DNA of 64,000 nt from an uncultured Spirochaetota bacterium. GTDB lineage: Bacteria > Spirochaetota > Spirochaetia > SZUA-6 > Fen-1364. Positions within the stretch are counted from its first letter, which is position 1. Every line of letters starts with the position of its first letter. Below, in pieces: positions 10,093 to 43,916 of this stretch. Location of the stretch: NCBI GenBank assembly GCA_963768665.1, contig CAVYIU010000009.1, positions 434,821-498,820 of the forward strand, written 5' to 3'. The notes under the pieces are model-generated. The model had not been told where the DNA came from. It did no database searches and saw only the letters and a program-made list of their open reading frames with translations. Made by a program: the position numbers and the translations under genes.

Positions 10093-10122
10093 GGATTCTT
10101 CCGATGCAATGGAGGGGGAGCC

Positions 10123-11129: not shown

Positions 11130-11142
11130 GGGCACCGCGTAG

Positions 11143-20233: not shown

Positions 20234-20306
20234 TCCCCTGTAGCTCAGTCGGTAGAGCGGGTGGCTGTTAACCACTAGGTCGGCGGTTCGAGTCCGTCCG
20301 GGGGAG
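20234..20306 (+). tRNA. tRNA-Asn (anticodon GTT)
   Basis: Hand-folded cloverleaf: acceptor TCCCCTG/CGGGGGA, D-arm GCTC-AGTCGGTA-GAGC, anticodon stem GGTGG/CCACT with loop CTGTTAA, 5-nt variable loop, T-arm GGCGG-TTCGAGT-CCGTC, discriminator G. CCA is not encoded. Confidence 0.8.
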
Positions 20307-20335
20307 CGATAAGTCCTTTTATAATAAGGACTTAC

Positions 20336-20405: not shown

Positions 20406-21607
20406 TTGAGAAGAAAGTATCCCGAACCGTGGAAGAGGCCAGGCAGTCCTTACTACCAGTGGTGGTACACAGATGCAGGCGGTAAGCGAGTGAGGATCTC
20501 GACCGGCCAGGTCTTGAAGGAAAAAGCGCGGGAGGAGATCAGAAGATACGTAGATAGGCTGACCGCAACGGCTGGCTTGACCACAACCACTTTTCGGGCC
20601 TATGCCGAACCATTCTTCCTATGGCAGACCTGCCCTCGTGTTGCACGTCTTCGTGATGAGGGCAAGAGCATCGGCAAGACACACGTGGCGAAAAGCCGTC
20701 GATGGCTTGAGACGTACGTCTTCGAGGACAAGGTGTTCTCCGACCTATCAATCAAAGAGATCAGGCGCGCAGACATCCTCGACCTGCGAAATAGGCTACG
20801 CGCAGCAAAGGAAGGCCGAACAAACACCGTGAATAAGGTGATCGCAACCATAAAGACCATCCTTAGTGAGGCAGCGTTCCGCCAAGACATTGATTTCAAT
20901 CCCGGGGCAGATGTCGGCAACATCAATTATCACAACTTGAACGAGGGACCTTCACTGTGGATGAGGTACGTCTGTTGCTTTCAGCGCGTCCAGGCGAGAT
21001 GAAGAATAGCCCTCTTGTTGATGTTGTCGTGACTGCTCTGCTTTGCACCGGTTGCAGGGCCGGTGAACTGCGAGCGCTTCGATGGGCCGCGGTAGATCTA
21101 AAGAGCGGAAGGACATCGATTTGCGAAGCATTCAAGAACGAGAAAGAAATCGGCGACCCCAAGTGGGGCAAGAAGCGCGAGATTGTTCTTCCTGGAATTT
21201 TACTGCAACGACTGAAGAAATGGCGAGAAACCAGCAGATTCAACTCGCCTGATGATTTCGTCTTCTCGACTCTTGATGGAGCTCCCCCCGGGCAAACTTG
21301 GATTCGGAATAATATGCTGAGGGTTCTTAAGAGCGCCGATGCCGACAAGGAACTGAACTTCAAGATCGGGGACCGATGGCTTACGCCTCATGCTTGTCGC
21401 CACACCATCAATAGTCACCTACTGGCCGCCGCGGTCCCAGCCTTGCTTGTACAGACCTTCCTCGGCTGGAGTTCGGAAGAAAATAGAATCCTAACCCGAG
21501 TCCAACGCTCATACACTGAGCTTAAGCTCTTCCGTCTCGAAGAGGTTGCTTCAAAGATCGACGAACTCTACGGTAAGAGAAAGGAACTGAAGTCGAAAAA
21601 CGCTTGA
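20406..21607 (+). CDS. tyrosine-type site-specific integrase (phage integrase family); frameshift near 20950-20960
   Basis: N-terminal SAM-like/arm-binding region, then a catalytic domain with TGCRAGELRALRW, HACRHT and a C-terminal Tyr. It is split between ORFs 20406..21002 and 20957..21607 and lies immediately downstream of the tRNA-Asn 3' end. Confidence 0.75.
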
Positions 21608-27656: not shown

Positions 27657-30592
27657 CCGTGGTCCCCGCGCAGCAGGCCGGGCAAGCAAGCGGGCAGACT
27701 CCGTATCCTCCTTCCAATCCTCCATCCCTACGATTTGACCGAGAGGAGCAAGCCAGTCCAGGATGGAAATGAGCCTTTGAGCTGACTGCCAGTAGTCGGG
27801 CAGCTCAGTCTTCAGGTAGCGAAGGCCTGCACCCGGGTTCTCGTCCCGGACAGAAGCCTGGATGGCAAAGAGCAGTTGTCGCAGGACGCTCCCTCCGAAA
27901 CCGTCGGCTCCCAAAGGGCCCAGATCGCGGTTGCCAAATTCGGAAGCGGTTTTTATGCGGGTTTGGTTCGCAGTGCCAGAAGCTAGGATAGGCTTCACCT
28001 CCCGCACGCCGAAACCACGGGCAAGCTCCTGGTAGACCCCTTGGCGTCGCTCGCCCCGGCTTTCCACGTCCAAGGCCCGCAGATACAGCCGCTCATCGGG
28101 ATTGAGGCGTTTCCATACATCCTCAAGGCCACGCGGCACGAGGTAGTCGCAGGCGATCGCGATGGCCCGATCAATAACCTGCTCGAAGCGCGGCTTCGGC
28201 GGCAGGTCCGCCTTTGATCGGCCCTTCCCGCGGGGGCGTTCCGGCACCGCCCGGAAAAGCTCGTAACTCACATCTTGCCCGTCTAAGGTTTGATACTGGG
28301 TAAGAACACGGAGAGCGGCTGCATAGGCCGCAAGCTGGTAGTCGGTGTCCCCAAAGTTCGGATCTGACGCGTCGTCTAGGGCACGCATCGTGTCGATCTG
28401 ACGTTTCACCTCGTCTTCTACGACCGGGTAAAGCTCATCAAGAAAGGCGTTCTCCGCGTGGAGCCGCTTGCGGAGCACGAGAAGCACCGTGCCCTGAACG
28501 TAGTTGCCCTTTTTGATGCCCCCGGCGGGCGTCTCCGTAGCGATTGTCCAAGCCCCGCTAACCTTGAGTCCGGATGCCCAGAGGATCATGCCGAGGTCGG
28601 CCCAGACTGCCCGGACTCTGATGCGTGAACATGACGAGTTGAAGTCCATTGTCGGGCATGTGTTTGGTCAGGTTTGCATAAACGTCCACCATCCCATGCT
28701 TGAAGTCATCGCCGGAGCCCTGCACCGCCAAGGCCTTGCGGCCATCGGGAATCCATTCGGGGAAGGCCTTGGGAAGTAGTTTTTCATACCAAGCCAGAAA
28801 ATAGTCGGCCAGTTCGTGGTAATTGACCGCGTCAGCATAAGGCGGGTCGGTAATCCAAATGTGGTTGGGGACAGTAATAGAGCGGGCGTCCATAGGCTCA
28901 GTCTTGCCGACAGTAACCTCCAAATCATTAGCTCTATCAAATAGTGGCCAGGCTGTGCTAAGTTTAGAAATCGGGCGTACGCTGAAGTTATAGAAGGTGT
29001 TCAAGGCTTGGTTGCTGAAGACGTGAGAACCACCTTCATTCGCGGCATTTGACATCCAAATGCATAACTTAGAATTCCAGTCAACGACCCTTCCAATACC
29101 CAACATCCCTGCGGCCAGGAGTCTGCCTCGCGACATGTATTCGGCCGCAATCAGCCCATTCACTATCAACTGGCGCGGTGTAAAAAGATGATGCCAGTGA
29201 GTCCATCCACGTGTTCGTATCGGCTCATCGGTCTTCTCCCCATCCGTTGGGATGGCCATGGAGGGGAGGTATCCTTCCCCCCACCATTCCTCGAGGCGCT
29301 CTCTCAGAAGCCTAAGAACCTTCTGCTCATTTTTCAGATCAAATTCGCTGGGAGCCCGATATTCCTTTGTCCCGTCGGGCTTCCGCCAGCGGATGCAGTA
29401 GAGGCGCTCCTGGAACACATCAGTAGGGCGCGGAACGAGGTCGTTCTTTTCCCAGCGGCGAAGACCCCCCGGACCCCGAAGGCTTTCCATCGGCCAGGAG
29501 CGATCACGGTTGGTAGGATCGATCACCCGACTGTCTATTGCTGTGCCAGTGCTGCCACTCGCGGCTGCAGTCCAACTGGCCTTGTCAGGTTTGGTGATGA
29601 TCTCAATATCAATGTGATCGCTTCCCTTCCGTTTCAGTTTCGCAATGACCTTCGTCCGCTCCCCTATCATCCAACTCGGTGCCAAGGGGATGTGGTATTG
29701 GCACCCTTCGGGCTTAACTTCCACGCAATACAAGTACGCTTCCGCCTGCCAGCCTTCCTCGCTTCTTTCGATTCCCCAGGCCGCAACTTTCTCTTCGGCT
29801 GCACGGAAAGCCGTTTCCTGCGCAGCGATTACCTGTTGCTGTATCTCTTTGCCGCCGCCCACAAGGTTGAGGCTGGCCCAGGTAAGGAGCGCGGCCACGG
29901 GATTGAGGTCGCTCCCGTATGCCTCGCAGCCTAGCCGCGCAGCTTCGAAAGGGATTGAGCCCCCGCCGCAGAAGGGATCTCCGACCTTCGGCCTCTGACC
30001 GAAGCTCCGTTTCCCCAATTCAACAACGAGATCCTGGAGCGTAGATGCCTTCGTGCCCAGATGGGCGTTGATCTCGGCCCAAGCAGATACATCCGGCCCG
30101 GTATGCTGTTCAGGCCTCACGCAAAAGCTGATACGTTCTGCGTAGGGCAAAGCCCTGAACTCTTCTCTTGAATAAGGGAAGCGCCGAAGTGCATCAAGCT
30201 CTGTTCTTGCAGTGCCATCCAAGGACTCCCAGATCTCCGAGCGCATTTCCTCGCGCCGCTCCTCGTCGGCTTCTTTCCATTCTTCTCTGTAGGACGGCGC
30301 CCGGTTGAGCAATTCCCGGTCCGGGATGCTGGCCTTGCGCCTCTCCCACAGGCCATCGTCGTCCATCGTTAGGAGCTTAAGAAAGACATCACGGTCCTTT
30401 GCCGGATCCCCGGCTTGCGGGCATGAGAAGCCCCAAAATGCTCGCCCTGACCAGGATCAGAGGCTTGCGCCCCCACCACTTCCCTAAGCCAGTGAGAGTT
30501 TGCCCGAGATTCGCCTTCCGCTCCTTGTAGCTTTCTGCGGAGAGACGGGCGATGGGGAACTGGCTTTCAATGAAGGTACGATCGTCTGTCAC
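27657..30592 (-). CDS. DUF1156-family putative N6-adenine DNA methyltransferase; at least 2 frameshifts; boundaries approximate
   Basis: N-terminal DUF1156 signature RTFIESQFPIARLSAESYKERKANLGQTLTGLGKWWGRKPLILVRASILGLL. MTase motif I is DPFCGGGSIPFEAARLG and motif IV is ITDPPYADAVNY. The frame is broken near 30370-30390 and near 28560-28650, and the C-terminal region continues into the first ~330 codons of ORF 26697..28649. Confidence 0.7.
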
Positions 30593-30873
30593 TCCGTGAG
30601 TCCTCGCTTCGGCAGCGTTCGGATTTGCCAATTCGAAGAGAATCCGAGAGATTGGGGGTGACTTGGTCGAAGGCGTGTATGAAGGGGCCCGGGTCGTGGA
30701 GGTCATGCCCTCATACGGCGAACAATGTGTCAACACAAGAGGCAGTGTGCTTTGAGTTGTGCCCACGCGGCTCCGATCAGGGCCCTTCGAAGGCTGTGAG
30801 TATCTCGATGCTCCGGCAACGAGAGCATCCTCGCTCCACCCGCTCTGCGTCGGCATGCCGCCAGGGCCCACGG

Positions 30874-31491
30874 CTAGAAAAGGCTCATCTGGCTTGCCCG
30901 CAGGAGCTCTTTGCGCGCCTTTGGAGGAATGCCTTCGCCCTTTACAATGGGGTTCTCCGTTAGTGCGAATCGCAGGGCTTTTCGCCAGCCAATCCCTCTT
31001 TGTTGCGCCTGACCCGTGGCCGCGGCCGTCATTGTGTAAAGCCACCAACGCTCCTCGGGCGCTAGACCTTCCCAGTTGCGGATAGCCTCAGGAATGAGTG
31101 AGGAATCAGCATCTTCAATTGCCCACAGCAGAACGCAAAGCTCCTTCCCAAGAGAGGCATGCAGAGGAACTGGCCCCTTCTTTGGCTGGCGGGGGACCGC
31201 GAGCCCTGAGTTCCTCAATCTGTGGCCAGCTTCTTCCCAAAAGACTGGCCCAACCTCCTCCCAGCGGAACCGCTCTACGATGGCGCGGAGTGAGGGATCG
31301 TTAGGACCAAGGTTGAGAATCTCGGTCCCTCCCTCAGCGACGTCCAGGGCTCGGTGCTCTGAAAGCGTGACGAACGCCGTTTCCTCCTGGCTTGGGGGCA
31401 ATCGGAGGAGAAAACCGTGACTGGCCTCTTCGGGAAGGAAGCCAAGGCCAATGCAGAGCCGTCCTTTTCTCGCGATAGTCATTCTGGCCAT
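30874..31491 (-). CDS. hypothetical protein, DUF3780-like by position and size
   Basis: 205-aa ORF wedged between the DUF499 and DUF1156 genes, as in the conserved DUF499-DUF3780-DUF1156 arrangement. I cannot confirm sequence-level identity from memory. Confidence 0.4.
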   Translation of the reverse strand: MARMTIARKGRLCIGLGFLPEEASHGFLLRLPPSQEETAFVTLSEHRALDVAEGGTEILNLGPNDPSLRAIVERFRWEEVGPVFWEEAGHRLRNSGLAVPRQPKKGPVPLHASLGKELCVLLWAIEDADSSLIPEAIRNWEGLAPEERWWLYTMTAAATGQAQQRGIGWRKALRFALTENPIVKGEGIPPKARKELLRASQMSLF

Positions 31492-31495
31492 TTTT

Positions 31496-34400
31496 CTAGT
31501 CCTGCACCACTTCCTCCGGTACGAGGTCGCTTCCCGCGGCCTTCAGCCAGTCGAGTAGGGCTTGACCGGTGCCAAACCAAGAGTGGGCACATTGCAGACG
31601 GATGACTCCGTCTTTTATGAGACCCTGAAGGACATCACAGATCGCTCGCAAGTCGGCCGCGCCGTAACCGGTAGAACTACTGCCGAGGTACTCTACAGAT
31701 TGATCCCCATTCGAGCTTTCCACTCTTAGGGTTACATCGAAGGACTTCACTCCGTACTTTTCCATTGCCTCAATAAACTTCCACGTGGATCCCGAATCGT
31801 CGAACTTCTGCCGCCGCGTCCACTTGCATGGCCTGTGCGGATCGATCTGAAAAAGACTTGGTCCCCCTGGAGTGGGGATGGCGATCTTAAGCTCATTCGA
31901 CTTGATTCCCTCGACCTCCGCAACGGCCAATACATACTTGCACCCTACAGGCGGCACAAATGGCCCGGCGTAGCTGCCCCCGCTTTCCGGCGACCTTCCA
32001 TCTGTGCTGTAGCGAATCATGCCTTCAGGCAGGCTGCGCAAAGTCACTTTTCTGGTCGCGGATTCTATACCGTACTTGAGCTTCGGCTCGCCCACCCACT
32101 CCACAGAGACGCCGGTAGGGTGCTCCCCGCTTGAGTCGACGCACAGGAAACTGTATCGCAGGCCTTTGGCCTCGAATCGTTGGAAATCGCCCACCCTGGA
32201 GCTTGCCTCCGTCGGTTTGTTCCTGCCCGCTTCATAGTAGACACGGTCCCCGTGCAGAGCCTCGATCTTGAGCCAACTCACGCCGCGGTCGTCCCGTGAA
32301 AGGAAGTATGGTTTGACTCCTGTTTCTGGTTTCGGGAAAGGGCCTTTGAGCACATACGTCCCTTGCTCGCGCCAATAGTCCTTTCGGATCGCCTCCGCTT
32401 TCAGTGTGTCCAGCGCATCGGGCCGATGAAACTGCCAAGTAGTGTTCGTGGCTGCCTGTCGTTTCACCTCGGCCCATTGAATCGGGCTCGAAATGAAAAG
32501 CCTTTGTTCACACTTCTGGCGGAACTGATCGCTTGCGACCTCTACGGTGAATTTCTGAGCGTCGAGAAGGGTCTTTCTGAGAACTTCCTCTCCCCGCCAA
32601 GCGTTTCCCTTGAATTCGAGGATGATAGACGCCTGCCGGAGCGCACCGCCAACATGCGGATACACCAGGATGTCGAAGGCCTGCGTGAGGGCTGAAGAAA
32701 ACTGGAAGAGGATCCTGTCCTTAAGCATATCGAGGGCCTTCATTTGCGGATCACCAGCAGGTGTGTTCTCTGCGTTCAGTTCCTCCTCAATGCTCTGCAA
32801 GGCTCGATACTGGCGTGCCGTGTCCTTGACGTTCTCCATCACCATTTTCGATCCAGTGAGAAACATGACTCGGTTTTTGAAGGTCTGTTGGGACCACCAA
32901 TCCTGCCACTCCTTTGACAGCGCCAAGTTGCCCGAAGCGCCCAAGGGTTCCGCAAGGATGAGGCACACGCGGTCCTGCTCAACCTGGACCTCGCTCAAGG
33001 CCGGAAGAGCCTCCAAGGTCTGGTAGAGGTCTTTCAGTACAGGGTCGAAACGCTCCTTCAGGAAGCGCCTGAGCTCCTTGGTCACGGACTCCTGATGTAG
33101 TCCCACCGCTGTGCTGCGCAGGCGCGCCGCCAGGTTCTGCTGGTTCTTGAAGAAGAGCCGCCCGTCCTGGGAGCGATGCAAGTACCATGCCCGGATGTCG
33201 AGGCTATCCAGTACCTTAGATTTGAGCCCGGAAAGGTCCCTGCCGGGCCGCTGGAGAAAGTCGTAGATTTCGTATTCGCGCAGGCCGTGAACGGCGCCTG
33301 CCGTGGTGGAAAGCGAGGAGAGAAGTATGAGCTTCGCTGTCTCGCTTCCGTCTGAGTTTCCGTTCTTCGAATCGAGGACTTCAGCTTCTGCCGTCCCCTC
33401 GTGGCAGATGTCGTGCGCGATCGCCTCCGAGAGATTTTGGTTAATGGTCCGAATCTCCGAGGAGATCTCCTGGTCAGAAAGGTCAATGTCATAAGGATGG
33501 ACCAACAACAGTTCATCCGCCTTCCCGGAATTCCACAAACTCGATACGACCATCTGCAGCAGCCTTATGACACCCCGTGTCTGCTGAAAACCTTCGTTTT
33601 CTTTGAAGCGCCCCAGCAGTTCTCGCCATGCTGGATGGAAGGGATAGGCAACCTGGACGTTTTGATAGATTCCCTCGGATGTGCTGGATGTCAGACCCAT
33701 CTTGACCGCTTCGGCATGACTGCTTCGATAGTCGTCCGCTACCGAGTTTCGTACGATTTCTGCAGGTAAGGAATCAAAAAGACGACACTGCAGTATCCTG
33801 AACAGCTCGTCTCCTTGCGGATTCACGGGGGTTATGGGCAGCGCGCCGCGCCGCGCCTCGTTTCTTAGATCTGGCAAGAGCCTTGTTGATCAGGTCCCCG
33901 CCCTCCTGGTAGCTTGCCCCGCTCAGGTCGCTCAACACAACAATGGCGTTTGGCATATCGGAAACGGCTATCATGAGGTTGGCGAGAGCTGTGGTAGTGA
34001 CGACGGACAAGTCGGAGTTGCCTATGGCCACGGAGCGAGCATTTTCCATATAGGGCGACAGCTCATCCATGAGGATGATGATCGGGGAATCGCCAAGTAG
34101 GGTCCGCCACGCCTCTGGTCCGGGTGCGGAGAGTGGCTTGTAGTACGGGTTGAAGAGTTCCTTGTTTGCCAGTTGCCCGGCTATGCTCCCCCAGATGCCC
34201 AATGGTGCATCAGACTGCCGGCCGTTGAATCCGACGACCCGAACTGCGCCGAGATTCTTAGCAGGATTCCAGTCGGCAAGTATCCGCTTCCTCAATCCTG
34301 CGTCTCGTGCGAGGATTCCAAGCGCTATCATGGAGTGCGTCTTGCCGCCACCCATCGCTTGGGAAAGCTGGAAGATGGAAGATCCGGTGGCATCGCCCGC

Positions 34401-34583
34401 CAGATGGCGAAAAGCCCTGTCGATGAGTGTCTTCATGCCTTCAGTCATGTAGTTTTCGAGAAAGAACTCTGCGCCGTTCACTTGTCCATTTAGAAATGTG
34501 TCCAGGTTCAGGACAGTGGCGCGGCGATCCTGACGAAACACAGATGGCCGAGGCTTGCAGACTGATGACAGTGAGTTTGACAC
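31496..34583 (-). CDS. DUF499-family P-loop ATPase (large, about 1029 aa); frameshift near 33830-33880
   Basis: Walker A QAMGGGKTHSM and Walker B IIILMDELSP near the N-terminus. Coding continues in ORF 31496..33877. The size matches DUF499 proteins (about 1000-1100 aa). Confidence 0.7.
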
Positions 34584-35386: not shown

Positions 35387-36523
35387 ATGCAGAGTGCCTC
35401 TCAGGAGCCACCAACGAGCAAGTCTTATCGCCTGCCCAAATTGTTTACAGAAGGCGTGCGATCCTCTAAACTCGTTGCCGACGAAAGAGGGGGCTGCACA
35501 ATGAGATCGCCTACGAAACAACTGTCCTTCCCGGTCTTGAAGTTTCTTCAAGGCAAGTACTCGTTAGTGGTGTTCTCTGCCGACGCCCGTACTATATGGA
35601 ATCACTTCGCAATCAATCGGCGCTTAGAGGACAAGGACGAGGGTTACCAGAGGACGCTAAAAGAAGGCCGCGTGAGGAAAATCGCCCGATACATAGAAAG
35701 CGGCAACGCACTTCCCCTTGGTATCCTCGTCTCTATGGAGAAAGGAAAATACAAGATCGAGGATGACCATATCGAGATAGTCGACGAGCCAGATGTTGGA
35801 TGGATTATTGACGGGCAGCATCGGGTTGCAGGTGCGCATGAGGCCAAGATCGAGATTGACATTCCGGTTGTCGCCTTTCTTGAGCTAGATCTCGAGGAGC
35901 AGATCAGACAGTTCGTAACGGTCAATAGGGAAGCCAAGGGAGTACCTGCTTCACTCTATTACGACCTCCTCTCACATCTTCCAGCGGTTAGTCCGGCGAA
36001 CAGAGCAAAGGAACGAGCAGTTGACATTGCGCATAGCCTGAGGGACAACGAGGAATCCCCGTTCTATTCCCGAATCGTTGCAATAACCAGCCCCAAACGG
36101 GGCGAACTGTCCTTGAGTACGTTTGCTTCCAAGGTCTCATCGCTCGTTGTCACGGACAAGGGGATCCTGTCTTCATACACTTTCGAAGAACAGAGCAGAA
36201 TTATCGACAATTACTACCGCGCAATGAAGAATGTCTTTCCAGCCCACTTCAAGGAAGAGGAGTCCGTATTCTTCAGGACTACCGGGTTTCGGGCACTGAT
36301 CCGTGTCTTTCCCTCGGTGTTCTCTTATGCCCTTAAAGCGCAGAAGGGATTCACTGTTGCAGATGTAATGCACGTATTGGGCAACATCAAAGACTTTGAC
36401 TTCGACACCTGGAAGAAGATCGGCACCGGGAATGCAGCTGAAATACAAGCTGCCGACGAACTCCGAAGCGAGATGGAGGACATGTATACCGAGAGCGGCG
36501 ACGCCGCAAAAATACGCCTGTGA
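35387..36523 (+). CDS. DGQHR-domain protein (DndB/ParB-like nuclease superfamily)
   Basis: Exact DGQHR motif in WIIDGQHRVAGAHEAK, with a preceding acidic strand. About 50% GC, well below the core. An alternative start is MRSPTKQ at 35498. Confidence 0.7.
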   Translation: MQSASQEPPTSKSYRLPKLFTEGVRSSKLVADERGGCTMRSPTKQLSFPVLKFLQGKYSLVVFSADARTIWNHFAINRRLEDKDEGYQRTLKEGRVRKIARYIESGNALPLGILVSMEKGKYKIEDDHIEIVDEPDVGWIIDGQHRVAGAHEAKIEIDIPVVAFLELDLEEQIRQFVTVNREAKGVPASLYYDLLSHLPAVSPANRAKERAVDIAHSLRDNEESPFYSRIVAITSPKRGELSLSTFASKVSSLVVTDKGILSSYTFEEQSRIIDNYYRAMKNVFPAHFKEEESVFFRTTGFRALIRVFPSVFSYALKAQKGFTVADVMHVLGNIKDFDFDTWKKIGTGNAAEIQAADELRSEMEDMYTESGDAAKIRL

Positions 36524-37446
36524 GAGATCTCCAACGAACAATTGGGCGCGTAGGATCGAGGGACTGGAAGGAAATATTCGGCTATTGGCAAAACGCGCTA
36601 TCGTCAATGTCATTCCCCATCGAAGACTTTGAGTCCCCTGGCTGTGGTCAGACCGATCTTATGGACCGCATTGGAGATGAGCTGGCCGAAATCGAGGCTA
36701 TCTCAACGAACAAGACGCACTTCAGGGGAGTGGAAGGAATTGAGTACAAGGTAATGACCGACGCTGTCGCGCTATTCTACAAATCACAAAATGCGATAAA
36801 GTCGGGGCAGTCCGATTTGCTTGCAGGCCTCAAGACGTGGAGCATCACGAACTACTACGAGGCGTCCTATCTCTCGACCAGATGCCTGCTGAATATGTTA
36901 GGCCTTCATGTGTGGCGAACTACAACGAATAGAGAACTCCTTATCGACCTATTTCCTCGAATTGAGAAGCGTCGCGGAGTTTTCATAGAGTCCCAGTTTC
37001 ACATTATTCGCCAAATGGACCACTGGGAAGTATGGGGTCTTCTTCAGAGGGTGCTTCGCACAACTGCAAATCTGCCGTTTGGGCGCGAGCTAATTGAAAG
37101 CGTTGGGAAAATCGAGTCGAAAGCGTTTGCAAAGCAGCGAAATCGAATCCTATATTCCGCACCACAATGGGTGTTCGGTGACCTAAAGAGCGAGTCACTC
37201 CCCCAGAACCTCGCAGAACTTGTGGGGACGGCAGAACTGAAGGATCTACTCGAAGGAGATCTTTCAACAGTAGTGATAGCCACAATGATGTTCATCGCAA
37301 CGGTCAAGCTGTTCCAGGCAATCGCTGAGGATAATCCGTCTCTCCGAATTGAGTTTTCCAAGATGACGGAAAGCTACTCCTCGGCCAGTAATGCAATGAC
37401 CTCGCAGTTCGAAGCATCGATTGCGGGCTTGTTCGCCACGACCTGA
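36520..37446 (+). CDS. hypothetical protein translationally coupled to the DGQHR gene
   Basis: GTG start overlapping the upstream stop (GTGA). 308 aa, about 50% GC, no recognisable domain. Confidence 0.5.
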   Translation: MRDLQRTIGRVGSRDWKEIFGYWQNALSSMSFPIEDFESPGCGQTDLMDRIGDELAEIEAISTNKTHFRGVEGIEYKVMTDAVALFYKSQNAIKSGQSDLLAGLKTWSITNYYEASYLSTRCLLNMLGLHVWRTTTNRELLIDLFPRIEKRRGVFIESQFHIIRQMDHWEVWGLLQRVLRTTANLPFGRELIESVGKIESKAFAKQRNRILYSAPQWVFGDLKSESLPQNLAELVGTAELKDLLEGDLSTVVIATMMFIATVKLFQAIAEDNPSLRIEFSKMTESYSSASNAMTSQFEASIAGLFATT

Positions 37447-38279
37447 CGCCAACAGCTCTTTCGTCTGGAACTATCCTTTACCTCTGGGCCTCGAGTACTT
37501 TCTCAATTCCCCTCCTCGGCGTGCAGATGCGGCGGATCTCGCTCAACGTGACGGGCGTGCGTCCCGACGGCGTCCCTCACGGCCGACCAATTGTGAAAAC
37601 TCGCTAAATGCCGTTGTTTTCTCTGGCGCAACCAACTTTAGCCCTCGCTGACGACATCAAGTGAAATAGTCAGCGGGCCACCGTAATGAGCGGTGACAAG
37701 GGAACTGCGGTTCCTCGTGCTCCGCGCGATGCGATAGGGCCATCGGGTGTGAGGCAGCCCTCTCAGAACCCGTTCTCAACGCCCGAAGGTATTGATGGCG
37801 GGCTTGCAGCGAGCCCGCCGGGGTGTTGCCACGTGATTTGATGGGGAGTCTGCTGGGTCGCTCCAAACATTGCGGCGCGCCGCGGGGGGCGCAGTGGCTG
37901 ACCAATGCCAGATGCACCAACGCAGCGCCGCGAGTTGACAACGGTCTGTACGCCTTTGCTCACGCTCGCAACGCTCTCTTCGGATGAGGATTTCGATCTC
38001 CTTCGTTGAACCCCTTCCATGCTCGCCTGCCCTTGCCGCCTCGACGGATGCGTTGAGGGCGAGGAAGTTCGTCGGTGTTTCGTCTTCCTATGCAGGATCC
38101 GCAAATCTGAGGATCACGTCGTGCAAGCGACGCAAGCTGAGTGCAGGCCAAGGCGAGCTACGATCGGCCGCCTTGCTCACTTCGTCGGCGCCCCGGGCGA
38201 CTGTTCGCCCGTAGCAAATGTCCTGAGGAGTCGCCCCGCGGCGCGGGGCTTCAAAGGACTCGGTTTCGGTGAGGATCGC

Positions 38280-39101
38280 TTATCGGGCGGACTTCAAAGC
38301 ATCTAAGGCGAGACCGACTGCCGTGACATGGATGGAGGCGCCGGAAATCGCGTCGGAGGTACCGTCAGCCCTTACAGCGATCTTGGCTGGATCCTGGGCT
38401 TTCAGAATGGCGTCTTGCACCGCGGCGGCCTGGACATTCCACTCGCCCTTTTTGGCTGCCGCGGCCAGTCCGTAGCGACCTCCGAGGGCTTCCACGAGCT
38501 TCGATTTCTTGGTGGCGTCCTTGTAGGTGGCGTTCCACAGCACATCGACAATGGTGCCATTCACCACGGTAATAAGCACCGAGTCCTTCCACCCCGAGGT
38601 GGCGTCGAACGTCGCCTGCTCTTTGAAGAACCAGCCGTCCTTCCTGTAAATGCCTTTAGCGACAGGGCCCGCAGCGATGGCCTTATTCACAAGAACGAAA
38701 AAATTGGCTACGTGAAGTGAGGCGCCAGAAATCGCGTCAGTGGTTCCGTCGGTCTTGATCTTGTTGAAAGCCACGTCCTGCGTCTTGATCAAGTATGCTT
38801 CGACGTTTGCCGCCTCTTGGTTCCATTCCAGCCCGAGCTTGGACGCCTTGATCATTCCGTAGCCCCCCGCAGCCGCCACGGTCTTCTTGTCCGCTACGCC
38901 CGTGTTGGAGACTCCGTTCCAGTTCACCTTAATGATCTTGCCACCTGAAACGGTGACCACGACCTGCTCTTTCCAGCCGCTGTCAGGAGCGAAGTTCGCG
39001 TCCTGCGCGAAGTACACGCCGTCCTTTGCTTTGGCCTGCGCGAAAGTAAGGCCGGAAGCAACGACCGCAAAGAGCAAGCCTATTGCGATGGTCTTTTTCA
39101 T
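38280..39101 (-). CDS. secreted/lipoprotein with two FMN-binding domains (PplA-like extracellular flavoprotein)
   Basis: Signal/lipoprotein peptide MKKTIAIGLLFAVVASGLTFAQA. Two repeats each carry the flavinylation-type motif TDAISGASLH / SDAISGASIH. The likely real start is at 39101. Confidence 0.65.
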   Translation of the reverse strand: MKKTIAIGLLFAVVASGLTFAQAKAKDGVYFAQDANFAPDSGWKEQVVVTVSGGKIIKVNWNGVSNTGVADKKTVAAAGGYGMIKASKLGLEWNQEAANVEAYLIKTQDVAFNKIKTDGTTDAISGASLHVANFFVLVNKAIAAGPVAKGIYRKDGWFFKEQATFDATSGWKDSVLITVVNGTIVDVLWNATYKDATKKSKLVEALGGRYGLAAAAKKGEWNVQAAAVQDAILKAQDPAKIAVRADGTSDAISGASIHVTAVGLALDALKSAR

Positions 39102-39968
39102 GAAACAGTCCTCCTCGGGGGGTGTAGGCCCCAACGATAGTGCAAAGAGTGGAACGTGTCAACCGCAAAGGAGGCAGCGAGTGCCGAGTTGCGAACGGTT
39201 TGCCCAACGAATATACAACGCTGCGGTCAGCCGCTAAGTAGGAAGGCCAGTAATGACTGCGGCTTCATGGTTCCAAACATATCGACGTCGAAGGACTGGA
39301 CGACACATTCCTCTCTCCAGACTGCTGGGACTTTGCCCATTCTACTTTCCTCCCGCAGGAACTCTCCGTCGCAGGGTCTGCGCTCATCAATTCGGCTGAG
39401 CCCGATTCGCCAAAACAACTGGTATTTCAGAGCTTGCGCCCAGGTACCCCAACGATCGTGTTGGGCAGTGGACGGCTTAAATCACGGTCTCTCCAATCCT
39501 GTGCTAGGTCAAGTCGCCTTTTTCGCAGTTGGGCGATTTCGCCCATTTGGGGCAGCGCTTTTTCCTTGCCCGCCGGGGACTGTTTTGTCGCATGGATGCC
39601 GAGATCGCTGAGTCGTTCTCCCCTGCCTTTGGACACGACGTCCGACGTGGTGCGGACGGGCGTCCCTCCCATTGCAACGGTTCGGCGGTAGTGGCAAGAA
39701 CAAGTTCGCCATGGTGACGAACACCTTGTAGCTCGAGCAGAAACTCGTCGGTTAGGGTTGGGTGTCATATTCCGCGGGTTGTCGTCAACGTAGCCAGGTT
39801 GCGGCGGCACGCCCACCCTTGGATACACCCTTTCCCATGACAGGAGTGCCACTTGAAGGGCTTGGCTCATCTCTTGCTGCCTTCCGATAGGTCGACCTCT
39901 CCAATAGCTTGATATCCTACAACCACTGAATATGATGTTAGGCTGCCCCAAGAAAAGGACTGCACACA

Positions 39969-40880
39969 ATGCCAAAAAGGACGAACGCATTCCAGCGGCT
40001 AATCCTCGCCATATACGAGCAACTGAGCGCGCCGGGTGGCTCGATCACCGAGTCGGCCATGCTACCCGAGCGCTCTGGCGGAACCCTCCGCGAGGTAGAC
40101 ATCCTGCTTCAATCTCGGCTCTTCGGCATCGACCTTAAGATCGCGGTCGAGTGCAGAGGACGCAAGGACCGAGATGACGTCACATGGATCGACGACCTAA
40201 TAGGCAAGTACCACGACTTGCCGGTCGACAAGGTCATTGCCGTATCAAAGTCAGGCTTCAGTGCCGGGGCAGCCGCCAAGGCTGCAGCATTCCGTATAGA
40301 GACACTTACCCTGACGAAGGCGTTGGAGACCAACTGGCCGGCTCAGTTCGCAAAACTGGGCCTCGCCCTGTTGACCCGACAAGACATACCAGTGTCGGTC
40401 GCCATAGCTACTTCCCCAGCGGCGCCTCTTACCCTGACGCCATCGACAATCGTCTTTGGTGGGGACGGAACTCCTTTAGGTGGAATAGAAGGATTGGGCC
40501 AAGCCCTGTATCGGCAAAAGCTTCCCGACATACACAAGGCTGTGCTCGAAAACGCACCCCGCCTTCTCAAGACGCTGCAAGACGTAAAGGAGAAACGCCT
40601 GTCGCTCGAGATGACGCATGGCCTCTCATCGCCGTGCTATGTCGTAGCGGATGATGGTAGCACCAAGCTTTACATACAGACCGTTACCGTGCAGCTGCAA
40701 TGTGCCTTCACCGTTGAACTGCTGAAAGTCGACCATTACGTTCTTGGGAACTCTCAGATTACGACGGCTACCGCGGGGCCGCCAGGACAACCAGTATCGC
40801 TCGTGGCTGTCCAGTCTACAGACAAGCCAAACCAGGCAACCTTCCGGATAACCGGACAGCCGAACTGGCCCTCCACATAG
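39969..40880 (+). CDS. restriction-endonuclease-like (Mrr-cat, PD-(D/E)xK) domain protein with uncharacterised C-terminal domain
   Basis: N-terminal EVDILL ... IAVECRGRK ... fits a PD-(D/E)xK core. It is flanked by low-coding sequence. Confidence 0.45.
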   Translation: MPKRTNAFQRLILAIYEQLSAPGGSITESAMLPERSGGTLREVDILLQSRLFGIDLKIAVECRGRKDRDDVTWIDDLIGKYHDLPVDKVIAVSKSGFSAGAAAKAAAFRIETLTLTKALETNWPAQFAKLGLALLTRQDIPVSVAIATSPAAPLTLTPSTIVFGGDGTPLGGIEGLGQALYRQKLPDIHKAVLENAPRLLKTLQDVKEKRLSLEMTHGLSSPCYVVADDGSTKLYIQTVTVQLQCAFTVELLKVDHYVLGNSQITTATAGPPGQPVSLVAVQSTDKPNQATFRITGQPNWPST

Positions 40881-41096: not shown

Positions 41097-42155
41097 TCAC
41101 CCCTGCCTCGGTGAGACCTTTTCTGGTTCTTTGTACGGCTCGTTCTTCTTCAGCACCCAGAACGCGGACTCTGCCAGGTGCCGAGCCACAGCACCTATGG
41201 CTACCGAGGAGCCCTTTCGCCCGCGAACATGAAGGTACAGCCTGGCGCAGTGTCGCGTGCTCCACCCCCGCTGAGCATGGTGAGCGGCCACCGCATTGGC
41301 CGCTTCGATGAAAGCCCACTTCAGGTACTGGTTGCTTTCGGTTCTCATCCTGCCGTAGTGTGTCTTGCCTCCGCTGGAGCTCACGCGGGGGGTCGTGCCC
41401 GAATAGCTGGAGAACTGTGGGGCACAGGGAAAGCGCTCGATGGTGCCCACCTCCCGCTCGATGACGATGGACAGGATGTCTGCCACCCCTGGCAGACTCT
41501 TCAGCAGCCGCATGTTCGGGGTAAGGGCAATCTGCTCGCGAATGCGCTCTTCCAGTTCAGCGATCTGCAGGCTGAGGAAGTCCAGCAGTTGCAGGTGCTG
41601 CGACAGACAGCGCCCTGTCTCAGAAGGGAGGCGGGCAACAGTTGTCTCAAGCCATGCTCGACCCCCCTTGGAGAACACGCTCACCCCCTCCGCGGGTGAC
41701 AGGGCGTACTTGGAAAGCAGAGAGTGGATACGATTTTTGATGGATGTACGCCACGCGCACAGAGCCACGCGCGTACGAGGCAACTCGCGTTGGTCACGGA
41801 GATTCGCCGGTGGCAGCCAGACCGAGGGCAGGCTGCCGAGTCTCAAAAGAGTGGCCAGTCCGTTGGCATCCAGTTTGTCGGTCTTGTTGACGTGACCCAT
41901 GAGAAGCTTTGCCTTGGAAGGGTTGGTGAGCAGGGGCTGGCACCCTGCAGCTTCGATCTCATCGGCGATCCAGTACCAGTTGCCCACGCACTCCAAGGCC
42001 ACGGGGGTGCCGCTGGGAAAGCGAGAGAAGAATGAGGACACCGCACCGGGCTGGTGGTTGAGGCGGACACGATCAAGGACTTGGCCCGCGGCGTCCTGGA
42101 CCTCAAGCTGGGAATAGTGCTTGTGCGCGTCACACCCGATGGAAAGCGATTGCAT
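41097..42155 (-). CDS. IS110-family transposase
   Basis: N-terminal DEDD-type LSIGCDAHKHYSQLEV. C-terminal Transposase_20-like LLKSLPGVADILSIVIEREVGTIERF. About 350 aa. Confidence 0.8.
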   Translation of the reverse strand: MQSLSIGCDAHKHYSQLEVQDAAGQVLDRVRLNHQPGAVSSFFSRFPSGTPVALECVGNWYWIADEIEAAGCQPLLTNPSKAKLLMGHVNKTDKLDANGLATLLRLGSLPSVWLPPANLRDQRELPRTRVALCAWRTSIKNRIHSLLSKYALSPAEGVSVFSKGGRAWLETTVARLPSETGRCLSQHLQLLDFLSLQIAELEERIREQIALTPNMRLLKSLPGVADILSIVIEREVGTIERFPCAPQFSSYSGTTPRVSSSGGKTHYGRMRTESNQYLKWAFIEAANAVAAHHAQRGWSTRHCARLYLHVRGRKGSSVAIGAVARHLAESAFWVLKKNEPYKEPEKVSPRQG

Positions 42156-42401
42156 AGCGAACCTCCTCGCGGGCACAAAAGGCCCGACTACGCTCGACTG
42201 TAGCGAGGAATGCCGCGCTGTGATATTATCATGTCGTTGCAGTTGTCGCCTTAACGTGGTTATTCGTGCGGCGGGGGCGGTCTAGGAGCGCGTAGGGTAT
42301 AGCAGGGACGCGATGGACCTCTGCGGCAGCTGGCTGCCGATCGAGCCCAGGGCGCCGCGTTCATCTGGTAGTGAACTCTCACATCCCGTCCTCTTTGGTG
42401 G

Positions 42402-43916
42402 CTACCCCATGCACGGAAGCTCATGCAACGCGTTTTCAGGGCCTTCAATCATCCTGTGACGGAACAGTTTCAGCAGATTGTGCGTCAGGCAGACGAAGGC
42501 CCATTCGCGGCGCACCTTCGCGCGCCCGCGTTGTGAGAACCTACGGAAGCCGCGCGCCTGCTCAATCTGCCCGAAGACGGGTTCCACGATCACCTTGCGC
42601 CGTGAATACACCAACTTGCCCGCGCTCCCTTTCAGTTTCTCACGCATGAGAGTCTTGGGACTCTGCTGCCCAGCAGAACCCCCCGATGGGACGGCGGCCT
42701 CAGTCCTCTCGCGGCCGACGGCGATGTAGGGATCAATCCCACGCTCCTGCACCTTTTGCACGTTGTCTGCTGAAAAGTAGCCGCTATCAGCCAGAAGCCT
42801 CTGGGGCCGCTGGGCATGCATGCTGAGCATTCTCTCCACCATCGGCACCAGGTACTCCTGGTCGGGAGACTGGTTGCTCACCCCGTGGGCGATGATCACC
42901 TGGTGAGCTGCATCCACGATGACCTGTGCGTTGTAGGCCTGGATGTAGGCCCCGTCCTTGACCATGATGCAGCTCTCTGGATCTGTGAAGTTGCGTTGCG
43001 CTGCCGCCTTGGGCTTGCCGTCCATCTCGCTGGCTACCCGATGCAAGGGCAACTCTGGCTGCCTACTTCCCTTCTTCTTTTCGCTGTTCCTCTCGGGAGC
43101 AAGGGCGTCGGCCTGCTGGCTGGCTTTCGCCGCGCGGGTGCGTGCACGTTTGCGCTCGTGGTCCGCCAGCGCTTCGCCCTCGCTTTTGGCGCTCTGCCGC
43201 TGGGCCTGCTCGCGCAACTCCTCAGCTCTGGTTTCGGCGGCTTCCTTTTCCAAGGCGGCCTTCGCCTCGCGAAGCCGCAGCAAGCGTGTCTCCCGTCGGG
43301 CCAATTCCTCAGGCAGATCCTCTTTGTCCTGCCCGGGCCCGTACAACTCATCCTCCTCCCGATCCACCTCATCGGCGCGTCGCAGCAGCTCCGCCACCTG
43401 CTCCTGTAGACGTTTCTCTTCCTCGTTCATCCGCTTGTAGCTCATCGCCTTGTGCTTGCTCGCTGCCGCCTTGATCTTCGCCCCATCCAGCGCTACTGCC
43501 CCCAGCTTCACCAGTCCGGCCTCCTGGCACAGGCGCAGCGCCTCCACGAACAGCCTGCCCAGCGCTTCCCCGTGCTCCAGTCGAAACTGGTTGATCGTGG
43601 TGAAGTGCGGATGCTGGCCACCACTGATCACTCGAAAAGCCACATCTTCATGCGTGGCCCGCGCAATTCGCCGAGAGGAGAACACCCCAACACTATATCC
43701 ATACACCAGAAGCCCCGTCATCATTCCGATCGCGTAGGGCCTCTCCCCGCGGTGATCCTTGCGTTGGACCTCATCCTCGATCTCGCCCAGATTCATCTGC
43801 TCCATCACATCCAGCACGAAGTAGGCCAGGTGTTTCGGGGGCAGCCATTCCAGCGGAGACGGGGGCAATAGGTATGGTTGTCGCGGCTCCCAAGGGCGAT
43901 AGTTTTTCTCTCCCAC
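42402..43916 (-). CDS. IS1182-family (IS5-related) DDE transposase
   Basis: N-terminal DUF772-like region (LLPPSPLEWLPPKHLAYFVLDVM ... MMTGLLVYGYSVGVFSSRRI), a K/E-rich coiled-coil middle, and a C-terminal DDE region (LLADSGYFS). 504 aa. Confidence 0.75.
   Translation of the reverse strand: MGEKNYRPWEPRQPYLLPPSPLEWLPPKHLAYFVLDVMEQMNLGEIEDEVQRKDHRGERPYAIGMMTGLLVYGYSVGVFSSRRIARATHEDVAFRVISGGQHPHFTTINQFRLEHGEALGRLFVEALRLCQEAGLVKLGAVALDGAKIKAAASKHKAMSYKRMNEEEKRLQEQVAELLRRADEVDREEDELYGPGQDKEDLPEELARRETRLLRLREAKAALEKEAAETRAEELREQAQRQSAKSEGEALADHERKRARTRAAKASQQADALAPERNSEKKKGSRQPELPLHRVASEMDGKPKAAAQRNFTDPESCIMVKDGAYIQAYNAQVIVDAAHQVIIAHGVSNQSPDQEYLVPMVERMLSMHAQRPQRLLADSGYFSADNVQKVQERGIDPYIAVGRERTEAAVPSGGSAGQQSPKTLMREKLKGSAGKLVYSRRKVIVEPVFGQIEQARGFRRFSQRGRAKVRREWAFVCLTHNLLKLFRHRMIEGPENALHELPCMG

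Follow-up and report, generated by a model that had tools for sequence, protein, structure and literature searches.

A DGQHR-domain protein and its conserved partner probably form an undescribed restriction-modification-like defence module, of which the window carries a variant without the methyltransferase

DGQHR/ParB-fold NTPases recur in modification-based immunity, including the Dnd, Dpd, Ssp, and GmrSD systems and add-ons to BREX, and their mechanism is still debated. DpdB has a DNA-stimulated ATPase activity that is needed for DNA modification by preQ0 insertion (PMC10164549), DndB has been described as an ATP-modulated repressor (PMC4507180; PMC10853773), and a DndB-like protein binds both ATP and GTP (PMC12704722). 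GmrS/GmrD, SspE, and BrxU join a ParB-fold NTPase carrying DGQ(Q/H)R to a second unit, the two being encoded by separate genes or fused, and the DGQHR motif is the counterpart of the ParB Box II/P-motif for NTP binding (PMC4619093, which also defines the motifs). Next to modification systems, ParB-like domains are repeatedly found together with nuclease or HEPN effectors (PMC3632139; PMC4619093). The Hma or DUF499-centred Type-2 BR systems are methylation-based, restriction-modification (RM)-like defence systems, and the published catalogue of BR/BREX auxiliary effectors has no entry for a DGQHR pair (PMC12839542). No description of the module reported here was found in searches of the literature on DGQHR and DndB-like (PF14072) proteins.

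The window, that is, the whole 64-kb stretch of DNA analysed here, contains two plus-strand reading frames joined by a GTGA overlap, as the sequence-only reading had described. The longest ORF of the first, or DGQHR, gene (35387..36523) encodes 378 aa, and the second, or partner, gene (36520..37446), defined by its ORF and by homologue alignment, starts with GTG and encodes 308 aa; stop and start overlap at 36520..36523 on the plus strand, a junction of the translational-coupling type. Because a promoter-like site, a ribosome-binding site, homologue lengths, and the public annotation agree, the true start of the DGQHR gene is more likely the ATG at 35501, which gives a 340-aa protein (35501..36523, plus strand) and leaves the ATG at 35387 as an alternative start. 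The homologues span 333 to 344 aa, and the same protein is publicly annotated with 340 aa. The putative sigma-70-like promoter (35444..35472, plus strand; TTTACA, a 17-nt spacer, and TAAACT) is located within the 5' extension of the 378-aa ORF and is a consensus match only, at 9 of 12 positions, with 4 sites of such quality in the scanned region versus 1.8 expected by chance. A Shine-Dalgarno-like GAGGGGG (35487..35493, plus strand) stands 7 nt 5' of the ATG at 35501.

The product of the first gene is a member of the DGQHR-domain/ParB-Srx superfamily, as the sequence-only reading had held. It scored 149.8 bits against TIGR03187 (DGQHR domain; cut-off, 58.85) and 57.2 bits against the Pfam family DndB (PF14072; cut-off, 29.1), and its DGQHR motif occupies D104 to R108 of the 340-aa form (35810..35824, plus strand). 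The QR pair (Y49 Q50 R51) and the FxxxN motif (F138...N142) are likewise intact, and the columns of all three motifs are invariant in the subfamily alignment A3 (36 sequences). The protein belongs neither to DndB proper, with 16.9 bits against TIGR03233 (cut-off, 328) and 16.7 bits against the PADLOC DndB model, nor to DpdB proper, with 99.5 bits against NF041060 (E 2e-28, residues 47-334; equivalog cut-off, 300), although DpdB was the best-scoring characterised family, reaching 101.5 bits with the PADLOC model. The ParB-N fold was confirmed at the level of predicted structure, with an AF2 model of pLDDT 85.7 for which Foldseek matched ParB-N domains at probabilities of 0.75 to 0.99. A likeness to ribosomal protein uS15, seen when the DGQHR profile was compared with PDB sequences (E about 0.003), was weak and was judged spurious. 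In agreement with the claim that cognate dnd and dpd genes are missing, none was found in Pfam scans of the 18- to 52-kb section, and none was found among the PADLOC matches listed, which covered 25 of 36 families across the 61 gene calls of the window.

The partner represents a protein family without existing annotation, which comprises at least 264 cluster representatives at E<=1e-3. Profile scans gave no Pfam (E<=1), NCBIfam, or PADLOC family match, which agrees with its earlier description as domain-less and leaves it without a family assignment; comparison of the partner profile with PDB sequences gave no match either. Its public annotation is shorter, at 279 aa, and the GTG start within the GTGA junction is preferred because residues 1 to 29 are conserved among homologues, whose alignments begin at residue 3 to 10. 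The AF2 model is of high confidence (pLDDT 93; pTM 0.92) and predicts a mostly alpha-helical fold with a small three-stranded sheet and no clear structural relative, the sole likeness being a weak one to a HEPN-like fold (Foldseek E 0.37). The most conserved block, R207-N208-x3-Y212-x4-W217-x3-D221 (37138..37182, plus strand), emerged from column statistics on alignment A1 (88 sequences) and on the partner sequences of the loci that were retrieved; the window partner retains every invariant residue of this block, and R207 and Y212 are conserved in the sister-clade partner too. The block departs from the catalytic HEPN motif Rx4-6H, reading R207-N208-x-x-(H/L/I)211-Y212 and thus Rx3H, with His at position 211 in only 61% of partner sequences and Leu in the window copy. 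No HNH-like or PD-(D/E)xK motif was found in the partner by Pfam scan or among its conserved residues. Two possible origins of the family were rejected by hhalign, namely, homology to the C-terminal domain of the DGQHR protein (probability, 0.5%) and derivation from the HEPN domain of 750-aa DGQHR fusion proteins by splitting (0.2-0.4%). The canonical HEPN C-terminus of those fusion proteins carries Rx4H, and the partner has no profile similarity to it.

Further loci were retrieved by way of the DGQHR alignment, the partner alignments being too divergent for a pattern search, and the family was defined by a DGQHR protein of at least 375 bits against profile A3 with a partner-family gene following at the junction. 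The window pair scored 539 bits (DGQHR) and 249 bits (partner), with the GTGA overlap. In all of the about 47 loci that have a DGQHR protein of at least 375 bits and downstream sequence (L002 to L049), which represent more than 12 phyla, the partner lies downstream of the DGQHR gene on the same strand, and L049 is the single locus of this set in which it is not adjacent; the same arrangement was found in 8 further metagenomic loci. The junction is tight, being a 4-nt overlap in 8 of 53 loci and placing the partner start between -12 and +15 nt from the DGQHR stop in 39 of 53, such that 47 of 53 show either the 4-nt overlap or a distance not exceeding about 15 nt; ATGA or GTGA overlaps are present in L082, L084, L086, and L087. 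In addition, pairwise identities of the DGQHR proteins and their partners co-vary (Spearman rho 0.46; 780 locus pairs), with divergence about twofold faster for the partner (median identity, 22% versus 45% for the DGQHR protein), and in a more distant sister clade of DGQHR proteins the partner persists as a diverged homologue (hhalign 96.2%, E 2e-9). Chance juxtaposition falls far short of explaining the pairing, and the earlier view of a genuine two-gene unit was borne out: the two genes are best explained as one functional unit, a single operon with coupled translation that forms a horizontally mobile module.

The pair usually has a third gene beside it. A beta-class N6/N4 DNA methyltransferase gene lies directly 5' of the pair in the same operon in 40 of 57 loci; among the 49 loci scanned with N6_N4_Mtase (PF01555), 38 had this domain directly upstream (176-181 bits, with a TSPPY motif). 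In 6 of those 38, a BglII-family endonuclease gene (PF09195) lies between the methyltransferase and the DGQHR gene, and with L086 and L088, which also have the methyltransferase and this endonuclease, the combination was seen in 8 loci altogether. About 30 loci have the methyltransferase and the pair in a tight operon without the endonuclease. The linked methyltransferase is absent from 17 of the 57 loci, the window among them: a six-frame search of its 64 kb with the methyltransferase profile A4 (hmmsearch --max) gave a best E of 3.3, with no trace of such a gene, and the BglII-family endonuclease is likewise absent from the window. Within the window's own subclade (at least 50% identity), stand-alone pairs make up 10 of 16 loci, and the methyltransferase, where there is one, is accompanied by a complete BglII-type RM pair in 5 of 6 cases. 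Other operon variants contain an SNF2 helicase and a NOV_C protein, or a radical-SAM protein and a GHKL ATPase. In more distant relatives, the DGQHR protein is fused to a canonical HEPN domain, and genes for B12-binding radical-SAM enzymes follow. The description of the pair as stand-alone thus holds for the window copy and for much of its subclade and fails for the family as a whole, because a methyltransferase heads the operon in 40 of 57 loci, a context that the window itself could not have revealed.

Because a DNA methyltransferase gene usually precedes the pair, it is probably an undescribed RM-like defence module, of which the window holds a variant without the methyltransferase. A different role suggested by the same linkage is that of a modification helper or regulator, in which the DGQHR protein and its partner would have no restriction activity and would instead use NTP hydrolysis to load or assist the methyltransferase on DNA, as DpdB does for DpdA, or would repress the operon and so adjust methylation levels, as DndB does for dnd. 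The methyltransferase immediately 5' in the same operon would suit such a role, as would the position of DpdB as the best-scoring characterised relative, the ATPase requirement of DpdB and the repressor activity of DndB described above, and the location of distant DGQHR relatives next to candidate modification enzymes of another kind, the B12-binding radical-SAM proteins. This role nevertheless appears unlikely. Stand-alone pairs are common and form the majority in the window's subclade, co-variation between the DGQHR protein and the methyltransferase is absent (rho 0.05), and a strictly conserved, fast-evolving two-protein machinery of about 650 aa exceeds the needs of a typical regulator. 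Moreover, beta-class methyltransferases of the CcrM/YhdJ type act without helpers. The missing co-evolution also bears on the RM-like reading, since it implies that the methyltransferase link may be looser than that of a dedicated three-part system.

In the window, the pair lies in DNA of unusual composition, and its placement as the lowest-GC segment was correct: GC falls to 0.504 at 36-37 kb, the window minimum, with 0.508 for the DGQHR gene and 0.502 for the partner gene, versus 0.575 for the adjoining cassette and 0.63 to 0.65 for the host flanks. An imperfect 16-nt inverted repeat (35474..37471; arms 35474-35489 and 37456-37471; no strand assigned; 88% complementary) brackets both genes exactly; 5.5 kb of sequence contain 7 inverted pairs of comparable quality, this one included, and it may have arisen by chance. 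The adjoining Hma cassette of the Type-2 BR kind (DUF499-DUF3780-DUF1156-HKD helicase; 24875-34583, minus strand) is divergent from the pair, from which the end of its DUF499 ORF at 34583 is separated by about 800-900 bp, close to the 800 bp noted before. No cassette homologue was found near the pair in the other approximately 56 pair-bearing loci, as assessed by gene clustering against 48 other loci and from database gene calls of 8 more, and an accessory or regulatory role of the pair for the DUF499/DUF1156 cassette finds no support in this result. The adjacency is read as island co-location because the pair-cassette linkage was seen in no other locus; the best explanation is that the pair entered an island linked to tRNA-Asn and came to lie next to an unrelated Hma/Type-2 BR cassette.

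The state of this island raises the prospect that the window copy is an inert, decaying remnant of a methyltransferase-DGQHR-partner cassette. The cognate methyltransferase is missing from all 64 kb, the adjacent cassette genes and an integrase are each split into several ORFs, and in L002, the closest genomic relative, the partner gene is broken by an insert of about 100 nt. The apparent frameshifts of the cassette mostly do not fall at homopolymer runs, which were checked for long-read assembly error; frameshifts in the neighbouring genes may nonetheless be assembly errors. Both genes of the window pair are full length and free of frameshifts, keep all invariant residues of their families, and are preceded by the promoter-like site and the ribosome-binding site, and intact stand-alone pairs recur among their relatives. 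Decay of the window copy is very unlikely. Among the retrieved loci, loss of the methyltransferase showed no relation to loss of conserved partner residues.

The phylogenetic distribution of the pair is patchy, and at each of the loci checked its AT content exceeds that of the flanking DNA. Cultured carriers include Chitinophaga, Halomonas alimentaria DSM 15356, Acinetobacter, Sulfitobacter undariae DSM 102234, and Guyparkeria, and in the sister clade, Geobacter argillaceus. The operon with the methyltransferase is present in H. alimentaria DSM 15356, Chitinophaga sp. YIM B06452, Acinetobacter sp. TWP2-2-3, and S. undariae DSM 102234, the last of which carries the BglII-like endonuclease as well. 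The flanking genes are heterogeneous; a subset are defence genes, comprising Type I, II, and IIG RM systems, MADS, OLD-like ATPases, toxin-antitoxin genes, and integrases, and the stand-alone pairs of the window's subclade are often near integrases, toxin-antitoxin genes, or RM systems. Enrichment in defence islands is only partial, because many flanks are housekeeping genes. The homologue survey upheld the joint conservation of the two genes, found no co-occurrence with DUF1156 cassettes elsewhere, and gave a divided answer on defence islands. An anti-defence function, also raised by the sequence-only reading, received no backing: the partner had no plasmid matches and only two weak phage matches, on large contigs that bear the label Acinetobacter phage, and no structural relative of viral origin was found. 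The pair is not included in the PADLOC v2 defence models, which is consistent with novelty and equally with a role outside defence.

The surroundings of the stand-alone pairs also suit a sensor-effector system that is independent of self-methylation and resembles Type IV or abortive-infection systems, such as a split GmrS/GmrD or SspE/BrxU. In such a system, the ParB-like NTPase would sense modified or foreign DNA or a phage trigger, the partner would nick DNA, cleave RNA, or arrest growth, and the linkage to methyltransferases or RM systems would reflect co-location of a "backup effector" rather than self-protection. Stand-alone pairs are intact and recurrent, and their neighbours are Type I RM genes, an MmeI-like Type IIG enzyme, an OLD-like ATPase, toxin-antitoxin clusters, or an integrase with AlpA; where the subclade methyltransferase belongs to a complete BglII-type RM pair (5 of 6 cases), the DGQHR pair looks like an add-on. 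The existence of DGQHR-HEPN fusions points the same way, and published proposals assign a backup or suicide effector role to ParB modules that have nuclease or HEPN domains and lie beside modification systems (PMC3632139; PMC12839542). The approximately 30 endonuclease-free tight operons of methyltransferase and pair have, by contrast, the look of dedicated self-protection, the partner lacks an HNH, PD-(D/E)xK, or canonical HEPN motif, and some stand-alone pairs sit in plain housekeeping surroundings. A methylation-independent sensor-effector is regarded as improbable.

The preferred reading, to which about an even chance is given, is that the two genes make up the half other than the methylase in an RM-like defence cassette that senses the modification state of DNA, an NTP-switch scanner together with a new effector or specificity subunit. 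This proposal is made because the pair mostly lies directly behind a beta-class amino-DNA-methyltransferase gene, sometimes with a BglII-type endonuclease gene. The DGQHR protein, as a likely ParB/Srx-fold NTPase of the DpdB/DndB/SspE kind, would bind and scan DNA by means of an ATP- or GTP-driven switch or clamp, and the 308-aa partner, an apparently obligate and fast-evolving companion, would contribute effector activity or target recognition. The window variant, which is the commonest form in its own subclade, would have to rely on a methyltransferase encoded elsewhere in the genome or else act independently of methylation, like Type IV or abortive-infection systems. A more specific version is tentative and is considered possible but doubtful: the DGQHR protein and partner would together form the restricting or effector half of an RM-like immune system that is widespread and previously undescribed, in which the place of the classical endonuclease next to a BglII-type methyltransferase is taken by an NTP-driven DNA clamp of ParB fold and an effector of new fold, and stand-alone pairs would be derived forms that plug into the methylation system of the host. 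The 17 of 57 loci without a methyltransferase are awkward for a classical restriction enzyme held in check by methylation. Two further points count against the RM reading, namely, that loci with a complete BglII-type RM pair need no further restriction activity and that the partner has no recognisable catalytic motif.

The DGQHR-partner family offers a minimal system of two or three small genes, one of which encodes an ordinary SAM-dependent methyltransferase, and the role of the ParB-fold switch is directly testable in it because the system is this small and is found in cultured strains. Should the pair prove to restrict DNA, RM-like defence would gain a new type of effector; should it prove to aid or control methylation, the DpdB/DndB principle would cover ordinary methyltransferases as well.

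Among described systems, DndB shares with the DGQHR protein the DGQHR domain (PF14072, TIGR03187) and the attachment of a ParB-like protein to a DNA-modification operon, whereas dndACDE do not accompany the pair, either in the window scans or in the flanks of homologous loci, and DndB is reported as a transcriptional repressor without a dedicated partner protein. The likeness to DpdB extends to architecture, since in both proteins an N-terminal ParB/Srx-type NTPase domain with DGQ(H/Q)R is followed by a C-terminal helical domain, and both are genomically tied to a DNA-modifying enzyme. However, dpdA (TGT-like), dpdC, and dpdD-K are missing from the window matches listed, and dpd genes are absent among the most frequent flank families of 40 homologous loci; the enzyme linked to the pair is a SAM-dependent amino-methyltransferase and not a transglycosylase, and Dpd systems have no counterpart of the obligate 308-aa partner. 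GmrS/GmrD, SspE, and BrxU resemble the pair in that their halves co-evolve and other defence systems adjoin, and SspE is a weak structural match to the DGQHR protein (Foldseek), but these Type IV or modification-sensing restriction enzymes combine a DUF262 ParB-like NTPase with a DUF1524 HNH nuclease, and the partner has no HNH/DUF1524 or otherwise detectable nuclease motif. The DGQHR-partner family also differs from Type IV enzymes in being usually operonic with a methyltransferase, an arrangement that is not typical of Type IV. The Hma/Type-2 BR cassette next to the pair differs from it in GC content (0.575 versus 0.505 for the pair). The DGQHR protein and partner belong to no described Type II system, and both the methyltransferase and the endonuclease of such a system are absent from the window; elsewhere, the pair lies directly 3' of a BglII-type methyltransferase-endonuclease pair in 8 loci and behind the homologous methyltransferase alone in approximately 30 further loci.

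The sequence-only reading described a DGQHR gene overlapping a domain-less partner by GTGA, and both genes were recovered as described on the forward strand: the DGQHR ORF at 35387-36523 (378 aa from the most upstream start) and the partner ORF at 36520-37446 (308 aa), the GTG start of which lies in the GTGA overlap with the DGQHR stop. The first ORF matched the DGQHR-domain model TIGR03187 with 149.8 bits (cut-off, 58.85) and the Pfam DndB model PF14072 with 57 bits; its product belongs to the DGQHR/ParB-Srx superfamily and has intact QR, DGQHR, and FxxxN motifs. The predicted model of the protein has a ParB-N fold (pNOB8 ParB-N, probability 0.99; Caulobacter ParB, 0.91; Noc, 0.75) and also matched SspE, weakly. 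Because a promoter-like site (35444-35472, +) and a GAGGGGG ribosome-binding site on the same strand precede ATG 35501, and because the protein is about 340 aa long both as publicly annotated and in every homologue, the gene probably starts at that ATG, giving 340 aa. At the C terminus (36401-36520 in the window), the subfamily has in common a conserved glycine-rich block, W..K.GTGNAAEIQA, and a conserved terminal IRL that reaches the stop codon; these may reflect a phosphate-binding loop, a partner docking tail, or a translational-coupling constraint. Residues 21 to 72 of the 340-aa form (35561-35716) gave weak, consistent uS15/S13 profile matches (E, 0.003-0.09), and the segment matched by the subfamily profile belonged to the eukaryotic and archaeal ribosomal protein (NRK-DKD...RLILVESRIHRLARYY); this resemblance is probably due to chance. 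A 16-nt imperfect inverted repeat (arms at 35474-35489 and 37456-37471, 88% complementary) brackets the pair almost exactly and may represent cassette ends or chance.

Profile scans of the 308-aa partner ORF gave no Pfam, NCBIfam, or PADLOC match. The public annotation begins 29 codons later, giving 279 aa; the overlapping GTG is the better start, since residues 1 to 29 are conserved and homologues align from residue 3-10 onward. The partner is a real, widespread family: in an exhaustive HMMER search, 264 cluster representatives passed E<=1e-3 and 117 of them E<=1e-10, almost all being about 300 aa long and aligned end to end. The invariant or near-invariant residues, every one of which is retained in the window copy, are R14, W16, W23, K88, G103, W107, Y113, G128, D143, H168, W172, R177, R207, N208, Y212, W217, and D221. 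AlphaFold2 with the family alignment gave a very confident model (pLDDT 93, pTM 0.92) with a predicted mainly helical fold and a small three-stranded sheet. Foldseek returned no PDB match to this model at E<1e-3, and a BFVD structure search returned none. The best PDB matches were proteins with HEPN domains (2hsb, probability 0.97; 3o10; 7bxo) and covered the query poorly. The partner's conserved "RNxxHY" block differs from the Rx4-6H motif of HEPN proteins; 61% of sequences have its His, and the window copy has Leu instead. "HEPN-like" is therefore a lead rather than an assignment. In membership tests, the partner qualified neither as canonical HEPN nor as DUF1524/HNH.

Pattern searching with an alignment of 36 DGQHR sequences retrieved 80 genomic loci, all ORFs of which were profile scanned. 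Wherever the DGQHR score was at least 375 bits and downstream sequence was available, a same-strand, downstream partner-family ORF was present (L002-L049; L numbers denote other loci, genomic or metagenomic, with DGQHR homologues). The sole partial exception was L049, in which a 421-aa ORF (L049:11144-12406) separates the DGQHR gene from a truncated partner gene. Hosts included Nitrospirota, Deltaproteobacteria, Fibrobacterota, Bacteroidota, Ignavibacteria, Alpha-, Beta-, and Gammaproteobacteria, Acidobacteriota, Verrucomicrobiota, Planctomycetota, Spirochaetia, Cyanobacteria, Chloroflexota, and Polyangia. The genes overlapped by 4 nt in 8 of 53 loci, and the partner start lay -12 to +15 nt from the DGQHR stop in a further 39. 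Independent database gene calls placed 8 further metagenomic relatives in the same arrangement, and the 4 partners profile checked among them scored 270-299 bits. Between loci, the pairwise identity of the DGQHR protein correlates with that of the partner (Spearman 0.46, 780 pairs), with the partner diverging about twice as fast (median identity, 22% versus 45%). In a sister DGQHR clade (180-275 bits), a conserved gene of 280 aa lies downstream, the product of which is a diverged partner homologue (hhalign profile-profile probability 96.2%, E 2e-9) with W107, Y113, H168, W172, R207, and Y212 in common; the pairing is therefore old. In four loci of this clade (L061, L063, L064, and L066, about 6100-13400 in each), the pair lies inside a conserved seven-gene cluster, in the order uncharacterised 338-aa gene, uncharacterised 135-aa gene, SNF2 helicase, paralogue of the 338-aa gene, DGQHR, partner-like gene, and radical-SAM enzyme, which may represent another DNA-modification or defence system. 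In the closest genomic partner homologue, from a Nitrospirae MAG (JACRHB010000151; L001/L002:9925-10030), an insert of about 100 nt divides the gene into ORFs of 175 and 192 aa; the insert has terminal inverted repeats (GGGGTATGCAC...GTGCATACCCC) and resembles a MITE or REP-type element.

In 38 of 49 loci, neighbour clustering placed a same-strand gene of 310 aa directly upstream of the pair, so the label "stand-alone" does not hold for the family; it does for the window copy, for which HMMER with filters off found no methyltransferase remnant in the 64 kb (best E, 3.3). The upstream gene encodes a beta-class DNA methyltransferase (PF01555, 176-181 bits; TSPPY motif), whose nearest curated families, YhdJ- and CcrM-type adenine methyltransferases, scored well under their cut-offs. 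Between it and the DGQHR gene, six loci carry a BglII-family endonuclease (PF09195), as do two more, L086 and L088. By the established reading of methyltransferase motif IV, the SPPY motif, with the BglII-type partner, would point to methylation at N4-cytosine. Among loci with at least 50% identity to the window DGQHR protein, the pair stands alone in 10 (the window, L002, L004, L006, L082, L084, L087, L089, L090, and L091), accompanies methyltransferase and BglII-like endonuclease in 5 (L003, L007, L008, L086, and L088), and accompanies the methyltransferase without endonuclease in L005 only; absence of the methyltransferase is not unusual for this subclade. Other variants had an inserted SNF2 helicase and NOV_C protein or, in one locus, an upstream radical-SAM protein and GHKL ATPase. 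Distant DGQHR proteins (L073-L079, e.g., L074:1599-5086) are fusions of about 750 aa with a C-terminal canonical Swt1-type HEPN (Rx4H), each followed by a B12-binding radical-SAM protein.

The methyltransferase and DGQHR protein showed no co-variation (rho 0.05); the pair is therefore the co-inherited core and the methyltransferase a more exchangeable module. By analogy with published relatives, the DGQHR protein may be an NTP-switch DNA binder or scanner and the fast-evolving partner may supply an effector or recognition function; together they would be what a restriction-modification-like cassette contains besides its methylase, a reading to which we give an even chance. Two alternatives stay in play because of the stand-alone forms and of the loci in which a BglII-type restriction-modification pair is already complete: a methylation helper or regulator akin to DpdB or DndB, which we regard as rather improbable, and a Type IV/abortive-infection-like sensor-effector independent of self-methylation, to which we assign the same low likelihood. 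The pair is compact, experimentally tractable, and found in cultured strains, and could settle the role of DGQHR proteins.

The pair has the lowest GC content in the window, as had been noted (0.505; adjacent cassette, 0.575; host flanks, 0.63-0.65). A tRNA-Asn gene (20234-20307) and two integrase genes, one split into two pieces (20406-21607, +), form the left edge of a low-GC island of about 20-50 kb. The divergent neighbouring cassette (24875-34583, -) encodes a DUF499 ATPase, DUF3780, a DUF1156 methyltransferase, and a PLD(HKD)-SNF2 helicase, an architecture published as Hma or "Type-2 BR" (PMC12839542). Every large cassette gene is broken, with at least eight ORFs in total (DUF499 in two pieces, the methyltransferase in two or three, and the helicase in three); most break junctions in the cassette and integrase lie away from homopolymer runs, so pseudogenisation and assembly error are alike possible. 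That this copy of the pair is an inert remnant is quite unlikely, since both of its genes are intact. Genes for DUF499, DUF1156, and DUF3780 were found in no other pair locus, which argues for island co-location and against the earlier suggestion that the pair is an accessory or regulator of this cassette. To the right lie a PplA-like FMN-binding (FMN_bind) lipoprotein gene (38280-39134, -) with an internal duplication at 384-nt spacing (repeat families D2 and D3); a gene, 2.5 kb beyond the pair, for a 303-aa protein with an Mrr_cat-like restriction-endonuclease domain (39969-40880, +; 24.6 bits; no NCBIfam name) that may be another island defence gene; IS110-family and DDE transposase genes (41097-43916); and, beyond these, rml sugar genes. 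One of 61 window gene calls matched the PADLOC "caspase" model (E 3.5e-24), and a tmRNA gene (62065-62413, -) encodes the tag peptide ANNADYALAA.

Elsewhere, stand-alone pairs adjoin an integrase and AlpA (L082) or a Type I restriction-modification system (L084), lie in toxin-antitoxin-rich stretches (L087 and L002), 3' of an NmeDI_C-like protein (L089), or between an OLD-like ATPase and an MmeI-like enzyme (L090), or have plain housekeeping surroundings (L091). Defence-island enrichment was partial: a subset of flank proteins across 40 loci matched defence models, but the flanks were heterogeneous, with 162 Pfam families in 131 proteins and none in more than three loci. The partner was not found in annotated plasmids and was essentially absent from phages.

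The DGQHR protein fails as DndB or DpdB by both score and gene context: it scored 99.5 bits against the DpdB equivalog cut-off of 300 and 16.9 bits against the DndB cut-off of 328, and, as first read, cognate dnd and dpd genes were missing from Pfam scans of 18-52 kb and from the PADLOC matches listed (25 of 36 families). The mechanism considered for the pair draws on published relatives. DpdB is a homodimeric, DNA-stimulated ATPase that DpdA needs to insert preQ0 into DNA (PMC10164549), a DndB-like protein binds ATP and GTP (PMC12704722), and DndB is, by published accounts, a repressor modulated by ATP (PMC4507180; PMC10853773). In GmrS/GmrD and SspE, a ParB-like NTPase is paired with a nuclease (PMC4619093), and ParB-like domains are repeatedly joined to nuclease or HEPN effectors next to modification systems (PMC3632139). 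PADLOC v2, Pfam, NCBIfam, and the searchable literature held no description of the methyltransferase-DGQHR-partner operon or of the partner family. What is new is this protein family without existing annotation; what is already known is the general theme of a ParB-fold NTPase tied to DNA-modification immunity.
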